From the sequence record OM386653.1: 64,000 bases of DNA. One strand, written 5' to 3'. Positions within the stretch are counted from its first letter, which is position 1; each line of letters starts with the position of its first letter. This DNA is from Escherichia phage vB_EcoM_ESCO8. A program made the translations under genes and the position numbers. Under the pieces are notes generated by a model. The model made no database searches. It was not told the DNA's origin and was given only the letters and a program-made list of their open reading frames with translations. Below, piece by piece: positions 17,243 through 43,708 of this stretch.

Positions 17243-17647
17243 ATGAAACAACTTATCATTTTACGTGGTGTTTCAGGCGCAGGTAAATCTACAGTAGCAG
17301 AAATTATTTCTGAAGGTTATTGGCCTATCTGTGAGGCAGATCAATATCATTACACAGAAAACGGTGTTTACGATTGGAAGCCAGAAAATGTAGGTAAAGC
17401 ACACGCATGGTGTCAGAGTATTGTTCGTGATGCTATGGCATCTAATATTAAAAAGATTATTGTCTCTAACACTTCAACCACAGAGAAAGAACTTAAACCT
17501 TATTTTACTATTGCTGAAGAGTTTGGTTATCAAGTTATCTCTTTAGTTGTTGAAAATAGGCACGGTAACGACTCAATTCATGAGGTTCCACAACATATTC
17601 GTGATCAGCAAGAGAAACGTCTTCGCAGTTCACTTAAGCTACAATAA
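17243..17647 (+). CDS. P-loop polynucleotide-kinase-like protein
   Basis: Walker A GVSGAGKST near N-terminus; 134 aa. Confidence 0.65.
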   Translation: MKQLIILRGVSGAGKSTVAEIISEGYWPICEADQYHYTENGVYDWKPENVGKAHAWCQSIVRDAMASNIKKIIVSNTSTTEKELKPYFTIAEEFGYQVISLVVENRHGNDSIHEVPQHIRDQQEKRLRSSLKLQ

Positions 17648-22335: not shown

Positions 22336-22548
22336 ATGAAAAAACTTCTTGTCGGTTTACTTTTAGTAATCAGTTCTTATTCTTATGCTGGTCAAATAAC
22401 TTTAATTAATTCTGGAGAACAAGTTTCTGGAAGTACAAAATACTGTTTTTACTCTAACGGTATGTACGACAAGGTTATAGAGGTTTCTGCAAGTCGTCAG
22501 TGTCCCTACACACGAACATTCTCAACAGAGAGTTCAGATGATGAATAG
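22336..22548 (+). CDS. Small secreted protein (signal peptide)
   Basis: N-terminal MKKLLVGLLLVISSYSYA. Confidence 0.5.
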   Translation: MKKLLVGLLLVISSYSYAGQITLINSGEQVSGSTKYCFYSNGMYDKVIEVSASRQCPYTRTFSTESSDDE

Positions 22549-22640
22549 GAGGTAATATTAGCGGTTACATTTTAATCCAACCGGAAGACCTGCACAAATA
22601 TGTTGACGAGAACACAATTCTTGCAATAGACTACGATCAA

Positions 22641-23675
22641 GTGGCGTTCCAAGCATCTTCAGCTTTAGAACAAAGAAAAATCCACGCTGTACACAAGGCT
22701 TCCGGTAATGTAAAAGAGTTTGAAACAAGAACAGATTTTTGGGGTAAATCTTCAAAAAATATTGGAGGATGGTTAGGAGCACTTAACGCGCAACGCGAAG
22801 CTGCTGGTAAGAAGTTGTTCTCCAAGGAAGATTTTGAAATAAAAGATGTTCAAATAGTCCCAGAGAATATTTCTTTTACGTTTCAAGCTGCAAAGACAAA
22901 AATAACCCAGATGGTGGATCACCTAAAACTTCAAAAGTATTGCGGTGTCATCGGGGTAGGAAAAACCTTCCGGCATTCTTTCAAAATGCCAAAAGAATAT
23001 AAATCAGAACGATCAGATTTAAGACCAATCCAATTATCAGATACTAAAGATTATCTAGTTGAAAAACATAACGGTGACGTTGTTACTGGTATTGAGGCAG
23101 ATGATGCTTTAGAAATCTATGGATATGCAGGGTATAAAGCCTACAAGGAAACTGGTAAGTTTTCTCATATTGTAGCATCTATCGACAAAGATAGCTTACA
23201 CACACCAAGTTTACTCTTTAACTTTTATAAAGAGGATGGTGTTTATAAAAATCCTTGTGTTATTCTGATTGATGAATCTATCGGTGATATCTGGATCGTA
23301 GAAAAAGGTAAGAAAAAAGAAGTTAAGGGTTGGGGTAGTTACTGGTTAGCTTATCAAATGCTAATGGGCGATAAGACAGATAGTATTCGACCTTACCAAG
23401 ATTTCGATGTTAAGTTTGGAGATATTACTTGCTTTAATCTTATTTCCAAATGTAAAACACAGGCTGAACTTTTTCAGACAGTTAAAGATCAGTATTATGA
23501 ATGGTTCCCAGATGGCGTTAAATTTACTTCTTGGGATGGTGAAGAAGTAGAAATGACAACTGATGAATGGATAGAGACAATTTTTCAGTTGGTATATATG
23601 AAACGTTGGGCGAATGATGAAACAACTTTTGAAAGTATGCTACAAGCATATATTTCAGAGCAGGAGGAACATTGA
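22641..23675 (+). CDS. Hypothetical protein with EADD motif (possible nuclease); start uncertain
   Basis: ORF track (GTG start); GIEADDALE motif. Confidence 0.4.
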   Translation: MAFQASSALEQRKIHAVHKASGNVKEFETRTDFWGKSSKNIGGWLGALNAQREAAGKKLFSKEDFEIKDVQIVPENISFTFQAAKTKITQMVDHLKLQKYCGVIGVGKTFRHSFKMPKEYKSERSDLRPIQLSDTKDYLVEKHNGDVVTGIEADDALEIYGYAGYKAYKETGKFSHIVASIDKDSLHTPSLLFNFYKEDGVYKNPCVILIDESIGDIWIVEKGKKKEVKGWGSYWLAYQMLMGDKTDSIRPYQDFDVKFGDITCFNLISKCKTQAELFQTVKDQYYEWFPDGVKFTSWDGEEVEMTTDEWIETIFQLVYMKRWANDETTFESMLQAYISEQEEH

Positions 23676-35416: not shown

Positions 35417-35971
35417 ATGATTCAAGCAACAAAAATCGAAGATTTGTTGATCATTCAACCTGACGTTTACGGAGATGAACGTGGTTTTTTCTTAGAAAGT
35501 TTTAATCAGGCTTTATATGATCAATACATAGGTAAACAAAACTTTGTCCAAGATAACCATTCACGTTCTATTCGAGGAGTTCTACGTGGGCTTCATTTTC
35601 AAAAGAAAAACCCACAAGGGAAGTTAGTACGTTGTGTTCGTGGTGAAGTTTATGATGTTGCTGTAGATATTAGGGTTGGTAGTCCAACATTTGGAGAATG
35701 GGTAGGTGTTCTCTTATCTGAAAAGAATAAAACACAATTTTGGATTCCTCCTGGTTTCGCTCATGGCTTTGTTGTGATTAGTGACATTGCTGATTTTGAA
35801 TATAAATGTACAGAATATTACGATCCGACTTCAGAGTGTAGTCTTGCGTGGAATGATCCAGATATCAATATTGATTGGGGTTTTGATTTAATCTTTAATG
35901 ATATTAATTTTAAACCTATCTTGTCACAAAAAGATCAGCAAGCCAAAACACTAAAGGAGATCATATTTTGA
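35417..35971 (+). CDS. rfbC: dTDP-4-dehydrorhamnose 3,5-epimerase
   Basis: Cupin motifs; 184 aa. Confidence 0.7.
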   Translation: MIQATKIEDLLIIQPDVYGDERGFFLESFNQALYDQYIGKQNFVQDNHSRSIRGVLRGLHFQKKNPQGKLVRCVRGEVYDVAVDIRVGSPTFGEWVGVLLSEKNKTQFWIPPGFAHGFVVISDIADFEYKCTEYYDPTSECSLAWNDPDINIDWGFDLIFNDINFKPILSQKDQQAKTLKEIIF

Positions 35972-36798
35972 CAAAATTTTTAATCTTTGGTTCAAAAGGT
36001 CAATTAGGACAGTCTTTGGCAAAAGTTGCGCCCGAAGATGTTATTTTGATTGAAGCAAGTGATGTAGACATTACCAACTTTAAAGATGTTATGAATAGTC
36101 TTGTACAGCATGTGCCTGATGTTGTTGTGAATTGTGCGGCTTACACGGCAGTAGATAAAGCTGAAGAAGATGTTAACACCTGTATAAATGTTAATGCATA
36201 CGGTGCAACAAACATTGCCAAAGCATGTAATGATTTACTGATACAGTTTGTACATATTTCAACAGACTATGTTTTTGATGGGCATGTTGCTGGCACAGAA
36301 GATAGTAAAACAAACCCCTTGAACACCTACGGTTACAGTAAACAATTAGGTGAAACTTTAGTACAAACAGTTTGTCCTACAGCACTTATTATCAGAACAG
36401 CTTCTGTTTATAGTGAATTTGGACATAACTTTTTGAAAACTATGTTGGAACGCTACAACGGTGGTCAAAAAGAATTTAATGTAGTATGTGATCATTTGTC
36501 ATGTCCTACTTATGCACCTGATCTTGCAGAAACAATTTTTAAACTTGTAAAAGATGGTGTAAATAGTAAAGTTGTACACTATGCAGGTGCAGATTATATT
36601 TCTTGGTATGATTTTGCACGAAAGATATTTCTTGTTATAGATTTATCTGTTACAGTTAATCCTGTATCTGCTTCAACCTATAATTCCAAAGCAGTCAGAC
36701 CAGCAACATCTTATTTAAAAACAGATCCTACTTTAAATCCGCGAAGTGTTGATAGCGGTATTGTAAGAACTTTAACTATACTTTTAAACAAGGAGTGA
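35968..36798 (+). CDS. rfbD: dTDP-4-dehydrorhamnose reductase
   Basis: N-terminal IFGSKGQLG Rossmann motif; 276 aa; follows rfbC. Confidence 0.7.
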   Translation: MTKFLIFGSKGQLGQSLAKVAPEDVILIEASDVDITNFKDVMNSLVQHVPDVVVNCAAYTAVDKAEEDVNTCINVNAYGATNIAKACNDLLIQFVHISTDYVFDGHVAGTEDSKTNPLNTYGYSKQLGETLVQTVCPTALIIRTASVYSEFGHNFLKTMLERYNGGQKEFNVVCDHLSCPTYAPDLAETIFKLVKDGVNSKVVHYAGADYISWYDFARKIFLVIDLSVTVNPVSASTYNSKAVRPATSYLKTDPTLNPRSVDSGIVRTLTILLNKE

Positions 36799-37061
36799 AA
36801 ATGAATTTTATTATCTACGGTAAACCAAATTGTCCTTTCTGCACTAACGCTAAGATTCTACTAGAACAGCGTGAACAGGATTTTAAATATCTTACCTTAG
36901 ATGAAGACTATTCTTTAGATCAGATTCAGAATCTGGTTTTAGAGAAAACAGGTGTTCTACCACGCACATTTCCTCAGATTTTTGTGGAAGATGGTGAACA
37001 GCTAACCCACGTAGGAGGTTTTTCTGAACTACGTGAATTCATGGCTCAGATTGCGGAGTAA
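36795..37061 (+). CDS. Glutaredoxin-like protein
   Basis: CPFC active site near N-terminus. Confidence 0.7.
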   Translation: MKMNFIIYGKPNCPFCTNAKILLEQREQDFKYLTLDEDYSLDQIQNLVLEKTGVLPRTFPQIFVEDGEQLTHVGGFSELREFMAQIAE

Positions 37062-37722: not shown

Positions 37723-37748
37723 ACAAAGGGGCGAAAGCCCCTTTTATA
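37723..37748 (+). terminator. Rho-independent terminator (GGGGC-GAAA-GCCCC + TTTTAT)
   Basis: Stem-loop after endolysin stop. Confidence 0.7.
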
Positions 37749-37760
37749 AGGAGTGCAAAC

Positions 37761-38513
37761 ATGGGAAACAAAACCGCAAAGGCTCGTCGTCAATCAGCAG
37801 CCAATGATGACAAACGTGCCAGTCGTTATGCGGCTAAAGCAGTAGGAAATGATGATTACCGTCTTGATGAATTTACCCCTGTTGGGAATCAAGAAGCTAT
37901 TGTAAGAAGCATGGTTTGGAATGATTTAACCATTGTTAATGCCCCAGCAGGAACAGGAAAAACGACAACAGCACTATGGAAAGCATTGCAAATGCTTAAA
38001 GCTGGTGACTTCAGAAAGTTGATTTTCCTTAAAAACCCGACAGAAGTAGGTGATGATCAAATTGGTTTCTTATCTGGAGATAAGACTGATAAACTAGCAG
38101 CACACTACGAATCAACTAAAAGAATTTTCCAACAGTTTATGACTGCAAATAAATTGGAAAACGATATTGCAAGTGGCAAAATTGAACTTAATATTCCAAA
38201 CTATGCACTAGGTGCTACGTGGGATAACAGCATTATTCTTATTGATGAAGTTCAACTTATGTCACCAAATACAGTAAAACTTCTCCTTGAGCGAGCAGGT
38301 CTTAATACACGTATTGTCATTATGGGTGATGTTAATCAAACATATGCAATTAAACGAAGAGCTAACGGGTTAGGTGATTTGTTAGATCGTGTTGTTCCTA
38401 TTAATGAAGAAGGAGAAAGGGAAGCTATTGTGGATTTTATTGGTTATGTTGAAATGACAACTGCTGATAACCAACGTTCCCGTTTGTCTCAGTTCATCAC
38501 GGAAGTATATTAA
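37761..38513 (+). CDS. phoH: PhoH-like ATPase
   Basis: Walker A NAPAGTGKTT; 250 aa. Confidence 0.7.
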   Translation: MGNKTAKARRQSAANDDKRASRYAAKAVGNDDYRLDEFTPVGNQEAIVRSMVWNDLTIVNAPAGTGKTTTALWKALQMLKAGDFRKLIFLKNPTEVGDDQIGFLSGDKTDKLAAHYESTKRIFQQFMTANKLENDIASGKIELNIPNYALGATWDNSIILIDEVQLMSPNTVKLLLERAGLNTRIVIMGDVNQTYAIKRRANGLGDLLDRVVPINEEGEREAIVDFIGYVEMTTADNQRSRLSQFITEVY

Positions 38514-38549
38514 TAATTACAAGGCAAGGATGCCTGTTATGGAGGTTAA

Positions 38550-39044
38550 ATGACGCTAATTGAGATTGATCGCAATGGTATTGATGAATGCTATCAAGCT
38601 GGCTTAGTTAAGCCGAATGAGTTTAGACAGATTTATATTGACAAGATTGAAAAAGAAATATCTCTTCGTTTAGAGAACATGACAACTTTGCAAAAAGTTC
38701 AGATGTTTTTTAGTTGGTTAAAAGGCGAGGATTGGCTAACTAAATATTACCAGGAATTATCTGATAGTCAAGAAGGCTTGTTTGAGTGTATAATAAATAT
38801 AGCTGGGTCTAATTCAGAATTACTCCTGATTGATGAAGAAGATTCTAAACTTCTTTTTCTTAGCAGTATCTTTCACAAGAAATCTATGTTAGTAAGAAAT
38901 TGCAGTGATTTACTAAATCATCCACTAACAAGAACTAATAAAATTCTTGTGGATAAAGAAACACTAAGAGCTATTGATTACCTCCGTAAATATGTAAGCG
39001 GTGGTAAAGCAGTCCTTAAAACACTACAGGAGGAAGTACAATGA
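38550..39044 (+). CDS. Hypothetical protein
   Basis: ORF track. Confidence 0.45.
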   Translation: MTLIEIDRNGIDECYQAGLVKPNEFRQIYIDKIEKEISLRLENMTTLQKVQMFFSWLKGEDWLTKYYQELSDSQEGLFECIINIAGSNSELLLIDEEDSKLLFLSSIFHKKSMLVRNCSDLLNHPLTRTNKILVDKETLRAIDYLRKYVSGGKAVLKTLQEEVQ

Positions 39045-39694
39045 CAACAATTATTGCAACACGTAACAAAATTCTGTCTGACGGTAAAGTAACAGTAGGT
39101 AGTCGTGTAGACACTTTAAATTTCAAGAAAGTGCGTAAAATTGGGGATTACCTTGTTGGTGGTGCAGGACGTCTGTCTTCTATCTTGACTTTCTTTTCTT
39201 GGTTCGAACAAAACTTACAATGCCAAGCAGCACAAGAGACAATCCCAGGTTTGGTGATCCAGTCAGATCCTGATAAAGAAGATGAAGAGTTTGTGGCATT
39301 GGTTGTTCACCCAGACGGTAAAATTTATATGCACGAGGGTAATAATCCAACACGAGCATATCCTTTAACTGAAGATTATTATGCTGTTGGTAGTGGGGCA
39401 GATTTTGCTTTAGCAGCTTTAGATGCAGGGGCAACTCCAGAAGAAGCGATGGAAGTTGCAAAACTACGAGATGCTTTTTCCGGTGGTGAAACTTTTGTCG
39501 AAGAGATCGAAGAACAACTGGAGCTAACAGCGGAAGATATTCTGAACTTCAGCAAGGAGCAACTAATTAGTATGCTGTTGACTGGTGATCCTGATAGTGA
39601 TGAAGCTGAAAGTATTTTAGCAGAAATGAAAGAATCACAAGAAAAAGTATTGACAGTCTCTGAAAAACTTGATAAAGTGTCCTCTGATAATTAA
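39041..39694 (+). CDS. HslV-like N-terminal-nucleophile peptidase with acidic C-terminal extension
   Basis: MTTIIA (Thr at position 2) and HslV-like block KKVRKIGDYLVGGAGR. Confidence 0.55.
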   Translation: MTTIIATRNKILSDGKVTVGSRVDTLNFKKVRKIGDYLVGGAGRLSSILTFFSWFEQNLQCQAAQETIPGLVIQSDPDKEDEEFVALVVHPDGKIYMHEGNNPTRAYPLTEDYYAVGSGADFALAALDAGATPEEAMEVAKLRDAFSGGETFVEEIEEQLELTAEDILNFSKEQLISMLLTGDPDSDEAESILAEMKESQEKVLTVSEKLDKVSSDN

Positions 39695-39705: not shown

Positions 39706-39727
39706 CCCCCCTTTAAGGGGGTTATTA
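39706..39727 (+). terminator. Stem-loop terminator (CCCCCC-TTTAA-GGGGG + TTATT)
   Basis: GC stem, short T-rich tail. Confidence 0.5.
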
Positions 39728-41168: not shown

Positions 41169-41831
41169 ATGAAGTTTGTACTGTATCATCGACTTTCTAA
41201 GAAGAAACAACAAGGCAACCAGTATGGTATAGAATCACAGGAAGCAGATATTCAACGCTTCCTGGATTCACAAGAAAATTATACTATTGTAGGTAGCTTT
41301 GCAGAGTTTTATTCGGGTAAAGGCGATTGGAAGCAACGTAGAGAGCTTGTAAAAGCTGTTAATCTTTGTAAAGAAACAGGTGCTACACTTGTTGTTGCTA
41401 AGGTTGACCGTCTTGGACGTAACACAGCCTCTGTTGCAACCTTATTAGAGATGATTAATGTACGAATAGCAACTATGCCCTCCGCTGAAAATATGATAAT
41501 AAATATTTTAGCAGTTCTGGCAGAAGAAGAGGCTCGTGCAATATCTGATCGTGTTAAGAAGAGCCTTAAGGTAGCAAAAGCGAAGGGAACGCTTCTTGGT
41601 GCAGCAAACCCTAAATACAAAAGAACAGATTATACGAAAACGGAAGAAGCAAAACGCTCAAAAGAGTTTGCGCTTTCTTTAAAAGATTCTTTAGTTGCAT
41701 ACAGAGCTTGTAAAACGCCATATATGACGATTGCAAAGCATCTGAATGAATCAGGAAAGAGAACTATTCGTGGGAGTTTGTTCGATGCCAAAGCGGTACA
41801 ACGTCTTTGTGCAAAATTGAATATTAAATAA
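41169..41831 (+). CDS. Small serine recombinase (resolvase/invertase family)
   Basis: N-terminal YHRLS; VAKVDRLGRN motif; 220 aa. Confidence 0.6.
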   Translation: MKFVLYHRLSKKKQQGNQYGIESQEADIQRFLDSQENYTIVGSFAEFYSGKGDWKQRRELVKAVNLCKETGATLVVAKVDRLGRNTASVATLLEMINVRIATMPSAENMIINILAVLAEEEARAISDRVKKSLKVAKAKGTLLGAANPKYKRTDYTKTEEAKRSKEFALSLKDSLVAYRACKTPYMTIAKHLNESGKRTIRGSLFDAKAVQRLCAKLNIK

Positions 41832-42638: not shown

Positions 42639-42965
42639 ATGAAAATAACGACAGAACAGGCTTTAATAGACAAAGGAAGGGAAATCTTAGAAAGTCATTT
42701 GGAGGATATTCAAAGGACTCCAGGGTATCTCGGCTGGCGTATACAAGAAGCCGTCGATTTTCTACCCCGTAAAAATAAAGAGATTGAAGTAAGATCTCTA
42801 TTCCTCCTTGTTAAAGTAGATGGTGACGCTATATACAAAGATGTAGCGTCTCACATTGAACAAATAGAAGAAAAAGCCTACAAAGAATTTGCAGATCTTG
42901 TTGTAGAACATAATATAGAAGGTAAAGTTAATATCTTTATACTTATGGATTTTGAGGAGAGTTGA
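42639..42965 (+). CDS. Hypothetical protein
   Basis: ORF track. Confidence 0.45.
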   Translation: MKITTEQALIDKGREILESHLEDIQRTPGYLGWRIQEAVDFLPRKNKEIEVRSLFLLVKVDGDAIYKDVASHIEQIEEKAYKEFADLVVEHNIEGKVNIFILMDFEES

Positions 42966-43708
42966 TGCTAGTATATCAAGAAATTAGTGTAAAAGATGAT
43001 CAAGACCTGTTTATTATTGGTGATTTACATGGTTGCTTTGATTTGTACCAGAAAGGTGTTAATACTTTAGGTATCCGAGATCAAGATGTTGTTGTATCTT
43101 TAGGAGATCTTACAGATCGCGGCAAGCAGAATTTTCGTTGTGTTGTTGAATTCACCAGAAAGCTAAATCGTTATGGTATTCGTGGAAATCATGAAGATAT
43201 GATGATTAAAGGGTTGCTAGAAGGTGATAGACGATATTACGAATGTTGGTTTCAGAACGGAGGCCATACAGTTCTAGACGAGTGTGGAGAAGAGGGTGCA
43301 ACTGCTCTTGCTTTGATGCTAGAAGATTTACCTGTTGTACTTGTTGTCAATTATCGTAATATGAAACTAGGCTTTATTCACGGTGGGTATCCTTCAGTTT
43401 TGGAACATTTACCAGTGACAGAAGTTTTGCCATTTTGTTTGAATATGAATAAAGAGCAAGTTTCTCGATTCACAGAATCTTTAATGTGGGATCGTGATAT
43501 GATAGATTGCGCACTTGAAGGGATTCTTCTTCCTAGAGTTTCAGGAGTAGATTATGTATTTCACGGGCATTCTTATGTTCCTAAACCTGTGATTAGCAGT
43601 AATAGGGTATATATGGACACAGGATCTTGCTTCAATGGTAATTTAACCTTTGCATATTTTGATGATTCAAATACGTTACAATTTTATTCTACTTTAGAGG
43701 AGGACTAA
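42962..43708 (+). CDS. Ser/Thr protein phosphatase, PP-lambda-like
   Basis: Motifs GDLHG, GDLTDRG, GNHE. Confidence 0.7.
   Translation: MMLVYQEISVKDDQDLFIIGDLHGCFDLYQKGVNTLGIRDQDVVVSLGDLTDRGKQNFRCVVEFTRKLNRYGIRGNHEDMMIKGLLEGDRRYYECWFQNGGHTVLDECGEEGATALALMLEDLPVVLVVNYRNMKLGFIHGGYPSVLEHLPVTEVLPFCLNMNKEQVSRFTESLMWDRDMIDCALEGILLPRVSGVDYVFHGHSYVPKPVISSNRVYMDTGSCFNGNLTFAYFDDSNTLQFYSTLEED

Follow-up and report, generated by a model that had tools for sequence, protein, structure and literature searches.

The gene for the unfoldase HslU normally lies in the hslV operon. Whereas HslV, gated by HslU, has a short pore loop, that of BPH is long and acidic, and BPH apparently is not under the control of an unfoldase (PMC8665760). 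In HslV the C-terminal tail of HslU is received by a pocket formed by Phe54 and Phe57 of helix H1, Gln114, and Ala79/Lys80 of helix H2 (PMC6429459). Two further groups, PPH and RPC, comprise phage proteasome homologues that lack helix H2, some of them with C-terminal extensions (Fuchs, Alva and Lupas 2021, PMC8665760). According to the same survey the PPH proteins have a size of about 140 amino acids, and the related RPC proteins, listed in its Table 1 for Proteobacteria only, possess a C-terminal extension or domain; C-terminal additions of this kind 'could present potential interaction sites' (PMC8665760). Phage HslV genes without hslU have also been remarked on in genome papers (e.g. PMC7823757). 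Here we describe such a gene, located at positions 39041-39694 on the plus strand of a 64,000-nucleotide stretch of Escherichia phage vB_EcoM_ESCO8 (OM386653.1; the whole stretch is referred to below as the window), and consider how its product may function.

The window DNA is 98.5-99% identical to that of phi92-like E. coli myoviruses (genus Justusliebigvirus). The encoded protein is 100% identical to an 'HslV family peptidase' of phage 92CQ and 98.6% identical to Phi92_gp058; the latter is described in a note as 'putative 20S proteasome' and appears in RefSeq under the product name 'peptidase HslV family'. The window protein also matches phrog_1040, likewise named 'peptidase HslV family', at E=8e-62. 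As a peptidase it is already known from the GenBank/RefSeq annotation and the family survey of 2021 (PMC8665760), beyond which its identification as such offers nothing new. A literature search for functional studies of phage HslV-like or PPH proteins gave annotation-level mentions only. Records labelled 'Campylobacter phage' (MG065639, MG065645, MG065656 and MG065689; host C. jejuni) contain DNA that is 98.7% identical to the window and a peptidase that is 100% identical; these are probably mislabelled or contaminant assemblies.

The comparisons described below identify the window protein as a phage proteasome homologue of the PPH/RPC type and not as a true HslV. It is highly probable that it is an active threonine hydrolase of this phage lineage, whereas a mode of action that is independent of an unfoldase is about evenly balanced between yes and no. 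Taken as a whole, the reading towards which we lean, with modest confidence, is that of a catalytically competent peptidase of the PPH/RPC branch (phrog_1040) that assembles by itself and operates without a dedicated unfoldase.

Family membership and active site

Profile, sequence and structure searches all lead to the same superfamily. The Pfam Proteasome model PF00227 (peptidase family T1) is matched with 25.1 bits (E=1.6e-5), which is above its gathering score of 22.4. The NCBIfam HslV models are matched at E=2e-8 and 1e-7, but their equivalog cutoffs (TIGR03692 / NF003964) are missed by far, with 31.6 versus 157.75 bits and 34 versus 137 bits. With phmmer against sequences of the PDB, HslV of T. 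maritima was found at 5e-8 and that of E. coli at about 1e-5, and a family profile built from 18 sequences found HslV at 7e-12 followed by proteasome beta5 at 2e-5. The structure, which was predicted for the monomer only, has the alpha-beta-beta-alpha fold of N-terminal nucleophile (Ntn) hydrolases, can be superposed on beta and HslV subunits, and gives a Foldseek probability of 1.0 to HslV, BPH and 20S beta. HslV is at the top of both the sequence and the structure searches and is the closest single solved structure; its alignments stop near residue 154 of the window protein.

The original prediction had described this open reading frame as an HslV-like peptidase, and its coordinates and the quoted N-terminus, which reads MTTIIATRNKILSDGKVTVG...KKVRKIGDYLVGGAGR in the translated frame, were recovered exactly, on the plus strand. 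With best matches to PF00227, the NCBIfam HslV models and phrog_1040, the assignment to the proteasome/HslV superfamily, and more specifically to its N-terminal-threonine hydrolases, is upheld. The label is too narrow in its other half: the protein is not HslV proper, because its equivalog score is too low (34 versus 137 bits for one of the two models), helix H2 and with it part of the HslU pocket are absent from the model, the C-terminal active-site motif is a different one, and there is no cognate hslU.

Conservation of the active site was evaluated in the best 150 matches of an exhaustive search of representatives (50% identity clusters), of which the 130 with a complete N-terminus were kept; with the window protein and E. 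coli HslV added, the alignment holds 132 sequences. Thr2 is found in every one of them, which agrees with the earlier proposal that the threonine directly after the initiator methionine serves as the nucleophile, and which would require removal of the methionine. The other catalytic positions are nearly as constant: Asp14 (130/132), Lys30 (131/132), Gly43 (131/132), Gly117 and Gly119 (132/132 each), serine or threonine at position 118 (132/132), Asp144 (127/132), and serine or threonine at position 147 (130/132). Their equivalents in proteasomes are Thr1 for Thr2, Asp17 for Asp14, Lys33 for Lys30, Gly47 for Gly43, Ser129 for Ser118, Asp166 for Asp144 and Ser169 for Ser147. Thr2, Asp14, Lys30 and Gly117-Ser118-Gly119 align with E. 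coli HslV. The R-D-x-x-S-G-G sequence at 143-149 has the proteasome-beta form, whereas E. coli HslV has Cys, Thr, Asn and His at equivalent columns. In an alignment of 18 closer sequences, which are 43-76% identical to the window protein, residues that do not vary at all include Thr2, Thr3, Asp14, Lys30, Gly40-Arg44, Gly117-Ser118-Gly119, Asp144 and Gly148-Gly149. A propeptide is absent, the threonine following directly on the methionine. Since the catalytic residues are near-invariant across the 132 representatives, the window protein is very probably an active threonine peptidase.

The wider family consists of long and short forms. The exhaustive search returned 57 clusters at E<=1e-30, which are long forms of about 165-350 amino acids, and 1,473 clusters at E<=1e-10; among the 150 of these that were listed, most are proteins of 138-156 amino acids starting with MTT. 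The short forms (about 140 amino acids) match phrog_1040 at 1e-30 to 1e-37, and 46 viral fold matches at E<=1e-3 were found in BFVD. In a neighbour-joining tree of the core the long forms occupy one clade beside the short forms; of its 61 tips, 56 have an extension of 30 amino acids or more. The peptidase occurs in 166 phage records, 106 of which are 'Escherichia'; the hosts that are named all belong to the gamma-proteobacteria. A search for members of the close clade in cellular organisms gave a single 425-bp contig among some 185,000 species-representative genomes. This contig (JAPMLR010000072.1, locus L006, 'Lysobacteraceae bacterium JHOS43'), which covers residues 68-188 at 74% identity, is most likely phage DNA in a bacterial assembly. 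The window protein shows the following features described for the PPH/RPC groups: it is phage-borne, devoid of a propeptide and of helix H2, related to forms of about 140 amino acids, and extended at its C-terminus; with a core of 155 and an extension of 62 amino acids it exceeds the size of PPH and fits the description of RPC.

Some phages carry more than one gene of this kind. In Aeromonas phage 4L372D a second proteasome-like gene, 4L372D_228 (L005:4432-4983, 183 amino acids), lies directly upstream of the long-form gene; its product has the N-terminus M/L-T-C-I-I-A, with a match to phrog_1040 (E=9.6e-26) and a weak one to Pfam Proteasome (E=0.013). With tandem paralogues such as these, some phages might build hetero-oligomeric rings. 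Vibrio phage VnaP has a second 'peptidase HslV family' gene, VnaP_043 (181 amino acids), as well as VnaP_103, which is annotated as ClpP.

Acidic loop, C-terminal extension and mode of action

The most pronounced departure from HslV concerns the region of helix H2 and the pore loop. In the model one long helix (residues 45-67) is followed by a coil (68-83) that contains Pro69, Gly70 and Pro77, and H2 is absent according to DSSP. In the long forms the segment from H1 to the next strand measures 21 amino acids, follows the pattern P.V.I.IPE...DEDF and has a net charge of -4 to -6, with the loop residues Asp81, Glu82 and Phe84 conserved. The same segment has 30 amino acids and a net charge of 0 in E. 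coli HslV, and about 12 amino acids in the short relatives. Alignment and model further show what has become of the pocket for the HslU tail: Phe54 is replaced by Leu49 and Gln114 by Tyr107, Phe57 is kept as the invariant Phe52, and the wall provided by Ala79/Lys80 is absent.

The second departure lies beyond the core. Residues 156-217 contain 17 Asp/Glu and 5 Lys/Arg, giving a net charge of -12 over 62 amino acids. The original prediction had pointed to an acidic tail of about 60 residues beyond HslV, and to this correct observation it can be added that residues 156-185 or so form a conserved helical element. Following the last core strand (151-155) the model predicts helices at 164-169 and 172-181. 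The motif of this element, LTxE.....SKExL..ML, is fitted by 32 representatives and is recognisable in homologues from Vibrio and Aeromonas phages with 34-38% identity. Along the chain, mean identity to the window protein decreases from 66-68% in the core through 35% in the extension helices to 17% in the distal tail, where the composition, i.e. the acidity, is conserved and the sequence is not. A net-negative tail is found in 91% of 65 long-form representatives (mean net charge -13), and the number of extra C-terminal residues among long forms ranges from 36 to 201. A HeH/SAP-like DNA-binding module, which visual inspection had suggested for the C-termini of some distant long forms, found no Pfam support at E<=0.05 and was dropped as a candidate.

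In the mechanism that we favour, that of a self-assembling peptidase without a dedicated unfoldase, the host methionine aminopeptidase would expose Thr1 by removal of the methionine. This enzyme cleaves off a Met that precedes Thr, as in the case of E. coli HslV with its Met/Val-Thr-Thr start, and proteasome-family subunits gain activity on assembly. The processed subunits would self-assemble to a ring-shaped, self-compartmentalised particle, which could cleave peptides, unfolded proteins or specific host or phage proteins without the help of a dedicated ATP-dependent unfoldase; the same is assumed of BPH and Anbu. The C-terminal helices, which would face outward, and the acidic tail could then act as a module for interaction, docking, recruitment or gating. 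This mechanism is favoured by the conserved acidic loop, which is found at the site where BPH has its long acidic pore loop. A proteasome-like hydrolase that is borne by a mobile element and acts without an unfoldase has been described in Rrp/SP_1145 (bioRxiv 10.64898/2026.08.10.744006).

A number of points weigh against it. HslV without HslU is a very poor protease (PMC6429459), and by analogy an orphan HslV relative could be similarly feeble unless it is activated. The conserved PhoH neighbour, discussed below, may be a partner in the form of a non-AAA+ ATPase. The loop that replaces H2 is modelled with moderate confidence only (block predicted local distance difference test score, pLDDT, of 62-75), and the literature search yielded no biochemical data for the window protein or any other PPH/RPC member. 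Furthermore, E. coli encodes HslU and every named host genus is gamma-proteobacterial, so that supply of the unfoldase in trans is possible; the remaining gamma-proteobacterial hosts are expected to encode HslU as well.

The phage itself does not appear to provide an unfoldase of the classical types. The original prediction had found no HslU gene in the window, and indeed E. coli HslU (from NC_000913) gave no tblastn match there at E<=10. The same holds for the near-complete sister genome OZ035770.1 (Justusliebigvirus alia), whose peptidase is 99.5% identical to that of the window: in 148,000 of its 148,442 bases HslU and Lon matched nothing at E<=1, and ClpX gave one weak match in the Walker region of a classical AAA protein of 386 amino acids, to which we return below. 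Matches to HslU at E<=1e-3 are found in no more than 4 'Escherichia' phage records, compared with the 106 that contain the peptidase. The only P-loop open reading frames of the window are those for PhoH (Table 1), a small kinase-like ATPase (17243-17644) and an exonuclease-family protein (22545-23672). As far as sequence comparison can tell, an AAA+ unfoldase of the HslU, ClpX or Lon type is absent from the phage as a whole and not from the window alone.

An orphan peptidase might instead hijack the HslU of its host. Its rings would then be hexameric and dock on E. coli HslU, resulting either in an ATP-dependent protease determined by the phage or in titration of HslU from HslV. Such a role would be consistent with the top rank of HslV in the sequence and structure searches, with a phage that lacks an HslU-type unfoldase of its own, and with the presence of hslVU in E. 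coli and a list of named hosts made up of gamma-proteobacteria. One pocket residue, Phe57, is retained as the invariant Phe52, and the near inactivity of HslV alone means that an activator would make sense (PMC6429459 for both the pocket and the activity). However, the pocket is otherwise altered, with H2 absent and Phe54 and Gln114 changed to Leu and Tyr. The HslV equivalog scores are far too low, neither the RDxxSGG motif nor the acidic loop resembles HslV, and the C-terminus is longer by 62 residues. In the short relatives the segment between H1 and the strand is shorter still, with about 12 amino acids compared to 30 in HslV. Use of HslU is thus unlikely, mainly because H2 is missing. Where the original prediction had left the choice between host HslU and acting alone, the first option is therefore weakened by the loss of H2 with Ala79/Lys80, and the second is the better supported one, although unproven.

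Somewhat further down in probability, and doubtful in our view, is a site-specific processing enzyme or transpeptidase comparable to connectase or Rrp, in which the C-terminal extension would recognise one or a few substrates. The variation of the C-terminal modules of the long forms, with their 36-201 extra residues, fits exchangeable recognition modules, and some of the new homologues may not form classic ring stacks (PMC8665760). Yet the model has no S3/S4 lid insertion, to which connectase owes its specificity (PMC8665760), the closest structures to the core are those of HslV and beta subunits, which form rings, and no candidate substrate emerged.

Gene neighbourhood and candidate ATPase partners

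The coordinates of the peptidase gene, its subdivisions and its neighbours are collected in Table 1.

Table 1. Features of the peptidase locus (positions in the window)
Feature	Position	Strand	Remarks
PhoH-like P-loop ATPase gene	37761..38513	+	Pfam PhoH E=1.4e-35; sole neighbour conserved in every informative long-form locus
Upstream gene, Phi92_gp059 orthologue	38550..39044	+	164 amino acids, phrog_14834; stop overlaps peptidase ATG
AGGAGG ribosome-binding site	39028..39033	+	7 nt 5' of ATG; direct sequence reading
Peptidase coding sequence	39041..39694	+	217 amino acids plus stop, complete; Phi92_gp058 orthologue; open reading frame listing and raw sequence
Ntn-hydrolase (proteasome-fold) core, residues 1-155	39041..39505	+	Holds D14, K30, G43, G117-S118-G119, R143-D144-x-x-S147-G148-G149
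Thr2 codon, predicted N-terminal nucleophile after Met removal	39044..39046	+	T in 132/132 representatives and E. coli HslV
Proline-containing acidic loop IPGLVIQSDPDKEDEEF, residues 68-84	39242..39292	+	Sits where HslV has helix H2 and pore loop; model
Conserved C-terminal helical extension, residues 156-185	39506..39595	+	Motif LTxE.....SKExL..ML, long-form clade signature
Fast-evolving acidic distal tail, residues 186-217	39596..39691	+	17% mean identity; low pLDDT, low-confidence acidic helix
GC-rich hairpin CCCCCC-TTTAA-GGGGG	39706..39721	unassigned (.)	Just 3' of peptidase stop; terminator-like scan

The ATG at 39041 is supported as the start codon because 198 of 227 collected homologues begin with MTT. 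At the place of the AGGAGG of the window an AGGAG ribosome-binding site is annotated in the phi92 record. The ATG overlaps the TGA stop of the upstream gene (ATGA), an arrangement that suggests translational coupling of the gp059 orthologue and the peptidase. The gp059 orthologue was also considered as a universal partner, a role that is not supported: although it directly precedes the peptidase gene in 10 of 13 loci, a Pfam match is lacking, and BLAST detects no counterpart in the phages of Vibrio and Aeromonas. Scans for promoters and terminators around the peptidase gene gave counts that were not above those in shuffled sequence, and the hairpin behind the stop codon is a possible candidate for a terminator or RNA-stability element. 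Short GC-rich hairpins occupy the gaps directly after the lysozyme, PhoH and peptidase genes (37725-37744, 38522-38535 and 39706-39721). The three were scored as terminator-like on the minus strand, with a total count not above that of shuffles, and may be RNA-stability or attenuation elements.

The surroundings form a co-directional auxiliary block with genes for a dTDP-4-dehydrorhamnose-reductase-like protein, a glutaredoxin/thioredoxin, a DNA invertase and a Ser/Thr phosphatase (35968-36798, 36795-37061, 41169-41831 and 42962-43708), and the phi92 record lists Sir2 and DNA methyltransferases nearby. The expression signals would be compatible with an early/middle auxiliary block of co-directional genes, and this context fits a host-takeover or accessory role rather than one in virion assembly.

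PhoH is the neighbour that stays with the long-form peptidase. Its gene is located 1.3-3.3 kb upstream in 13 of 13 compared loci, and it is upstream as well in the divergent long-form members P0120, P0118 and P0098, which brings the count to 16 of 16 informative loci; a lysozyme gene usually comes just before it. In the loci L034-L036 the PhoH gene contains an intein (Hint and LAGLIDADG) and ends 55 bp before the peptidase gene (P0120). Further PhoH coordinates are L034:4084-5946, L037:2897-3685 and L040:345-1121.

The other ATPase of interest is the classical AAA protein mentioned above (L028:11140-12300, minus strand; phrog_2376), whose gene lies outside the window at a distance of about 53 kb from that of the peptidase. 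The protein matches PF00004 at E=1.2e-6, has the Walker A and B sequences GTKGSGKT and IMIDEFD, and by eye shows a pore-loop-like FNGEG and an RNRPSRI resembling the second region of homology (SRH). A paralogue with 47% identity to this copy is present in OZ035770.1 (L028:27839-28600, plus strand). The family, which is widespread in large phages infecting Gram-positive and Gram-negative hosts, occurs in 302 phage records. These include Lactococcus, Lactobacillus, Bacillus, Staphylococcus and crAss-like phages, whereas the organisms listed for the peptidase include none of them. The AAA protein was rejected as a dedicated unfoldase on account of this wide occurrence beyond the peptidase hosts and its absence from VnaP, which has a long-form peptidase. 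Another candidate, VnaP_001 (725 amino acids), is annotated as 'ATP-dependent Clp protease ATP-binding subunit'. It was discarded too, as it gave no match to E. coli ClpX, HslU or Lon at E<=0.01 and has no homologue in Justusliebigvirus; the Clp annotation is probably wrong. The coordinates for VnaP_043, VnaP_001 and VnaP_103 are L031:26210-26755, L031:240-2417 and L004:9869-10465.

A pairing of the peptidase with a phage ATPase other than HslU, be it the upstream PhoH or the distant phrog_2376 AAA protein, would constitute a new type of ATP-dependent machine, but we regard it as improbable. It would account for the occurrence of PhoH 0.06-3.3 kb upstream in all informative loci, including peptidases of about 35% identity or less and the directly adjacent arrangement in L034-L036, and for the two paralogous AAA proteins of the sister genome, of which the scanned copy has the Pfam match and the motifs given above. 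However, PhoH matches helicase-like P-loop families (AAA_30, AAA_19, UvrD) and is not a known protein unfoldase, and the linkage may simply be inherited gene order. Since the entire lysozyme-PhoH-peptidase block is conserved, and since in the phi92 record PhoH is given a counterpart in PVP-SE1 and gp057-gp059 are not, functional coupling and inherited order are inseparable here. One short-form relative, found in a temperate-phage context with integrase, YqaJ and metallophosphatase genes, has no PhoH within 6 kb. The AAA protein, in turn, is also found in host groups that are not listed for the peptidase and is missing from VnaP. The more specific proposal that PhoH and the long-form peptidase are two halves of one ATP-dependent degradation or remodelling machine, in which the helicase-like ATPase would feed or activate the peptidase, is very improbable. 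If true, it would reveal a previously unrecognised system and provide the first function for phage PhoH.

Finally, an enzymatically dead or decaying remnant, as might be proposed from the setting among accessory genes and from a literature in which no functional data were found, is hardly credible, because the near-invariance of the catalytic positions in the 132 representatives and the contrast in identity between core and distal tail indicate purifying selection on the active site.

Comparison with known systems

Orphan phage proteasome homologues are a real and widespread class, and the question of their partner bears on the viral rewiring of host proteolysis. As very small (about 140-220 amino acids), self-contained threonine proteases they may also be of use in biotechnology. 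The gene in the window is a convenient model, as it belongs to an easily grown E. coli phage, and the hypotheses about it are now sharper: use of HslU is unlikely with H2 missing, conservation extends to the acidic loop and the C-terminal helices, and in the long-form clade PhoH is linked without exception.

Among the described enzymes, HslV (ClpQ) differs from the window protein by equivalog cutoffs that lie far above its score, by helix H2 and a short pore loop, by another C-terminal motif, and by the absence of the 62-residue extension. HslV assembles as a dodecamer, with two hexameric rings, and is activated by HslU. It also has a cognate hslU, whereas in the window phage there is none, either adjacent or elsewhere in the genome. 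BPH (PDB 5OVS, 5OVT and 5OVU), which has 18-23% identity to the window protein in structural alignments, retains both H1 and H2, assembles into heptameric double rings, and is a cellular protein without a C-terminal extension. Compared with the beta subunits of archaeal and eukaryotic 20S proteasomes, the window protein has a much smaller core and is without propeptide, alpha partner, H2 and H5.

Rrp (SP_1145 of S. pneumoniae TIGR4) is similar in being a proteasome-like Ntn hydrolase that is located on a phage-like mobile element and has phage relatives by fold search. Stand-alone site-specific proteolysis has been demonstrated for it (bioRxiv 10.64898/2026.08.10.744006). Rrp is Anbu/beta-like with extra domains and comes from a Gram-positive host, and its likeness to the window protein is one by description only.

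The closest agreement is with the PPH and RPC groups. PPH proteins are smaller, with about 140 amino acids compared to the 217 found here, and the placement follows the features described for the groups in PMC8665760. RPC proteins are listed for Proteobacteria only in Table 1 of that survey, whereas the close clade of the window protein is confined to phages. What is shared with these groups is a phage-borne gene, a Met-Thr start, the full catalytic set, the absence of H2, and a compact Group I (HslV/BPH-like) core without S12/H5.

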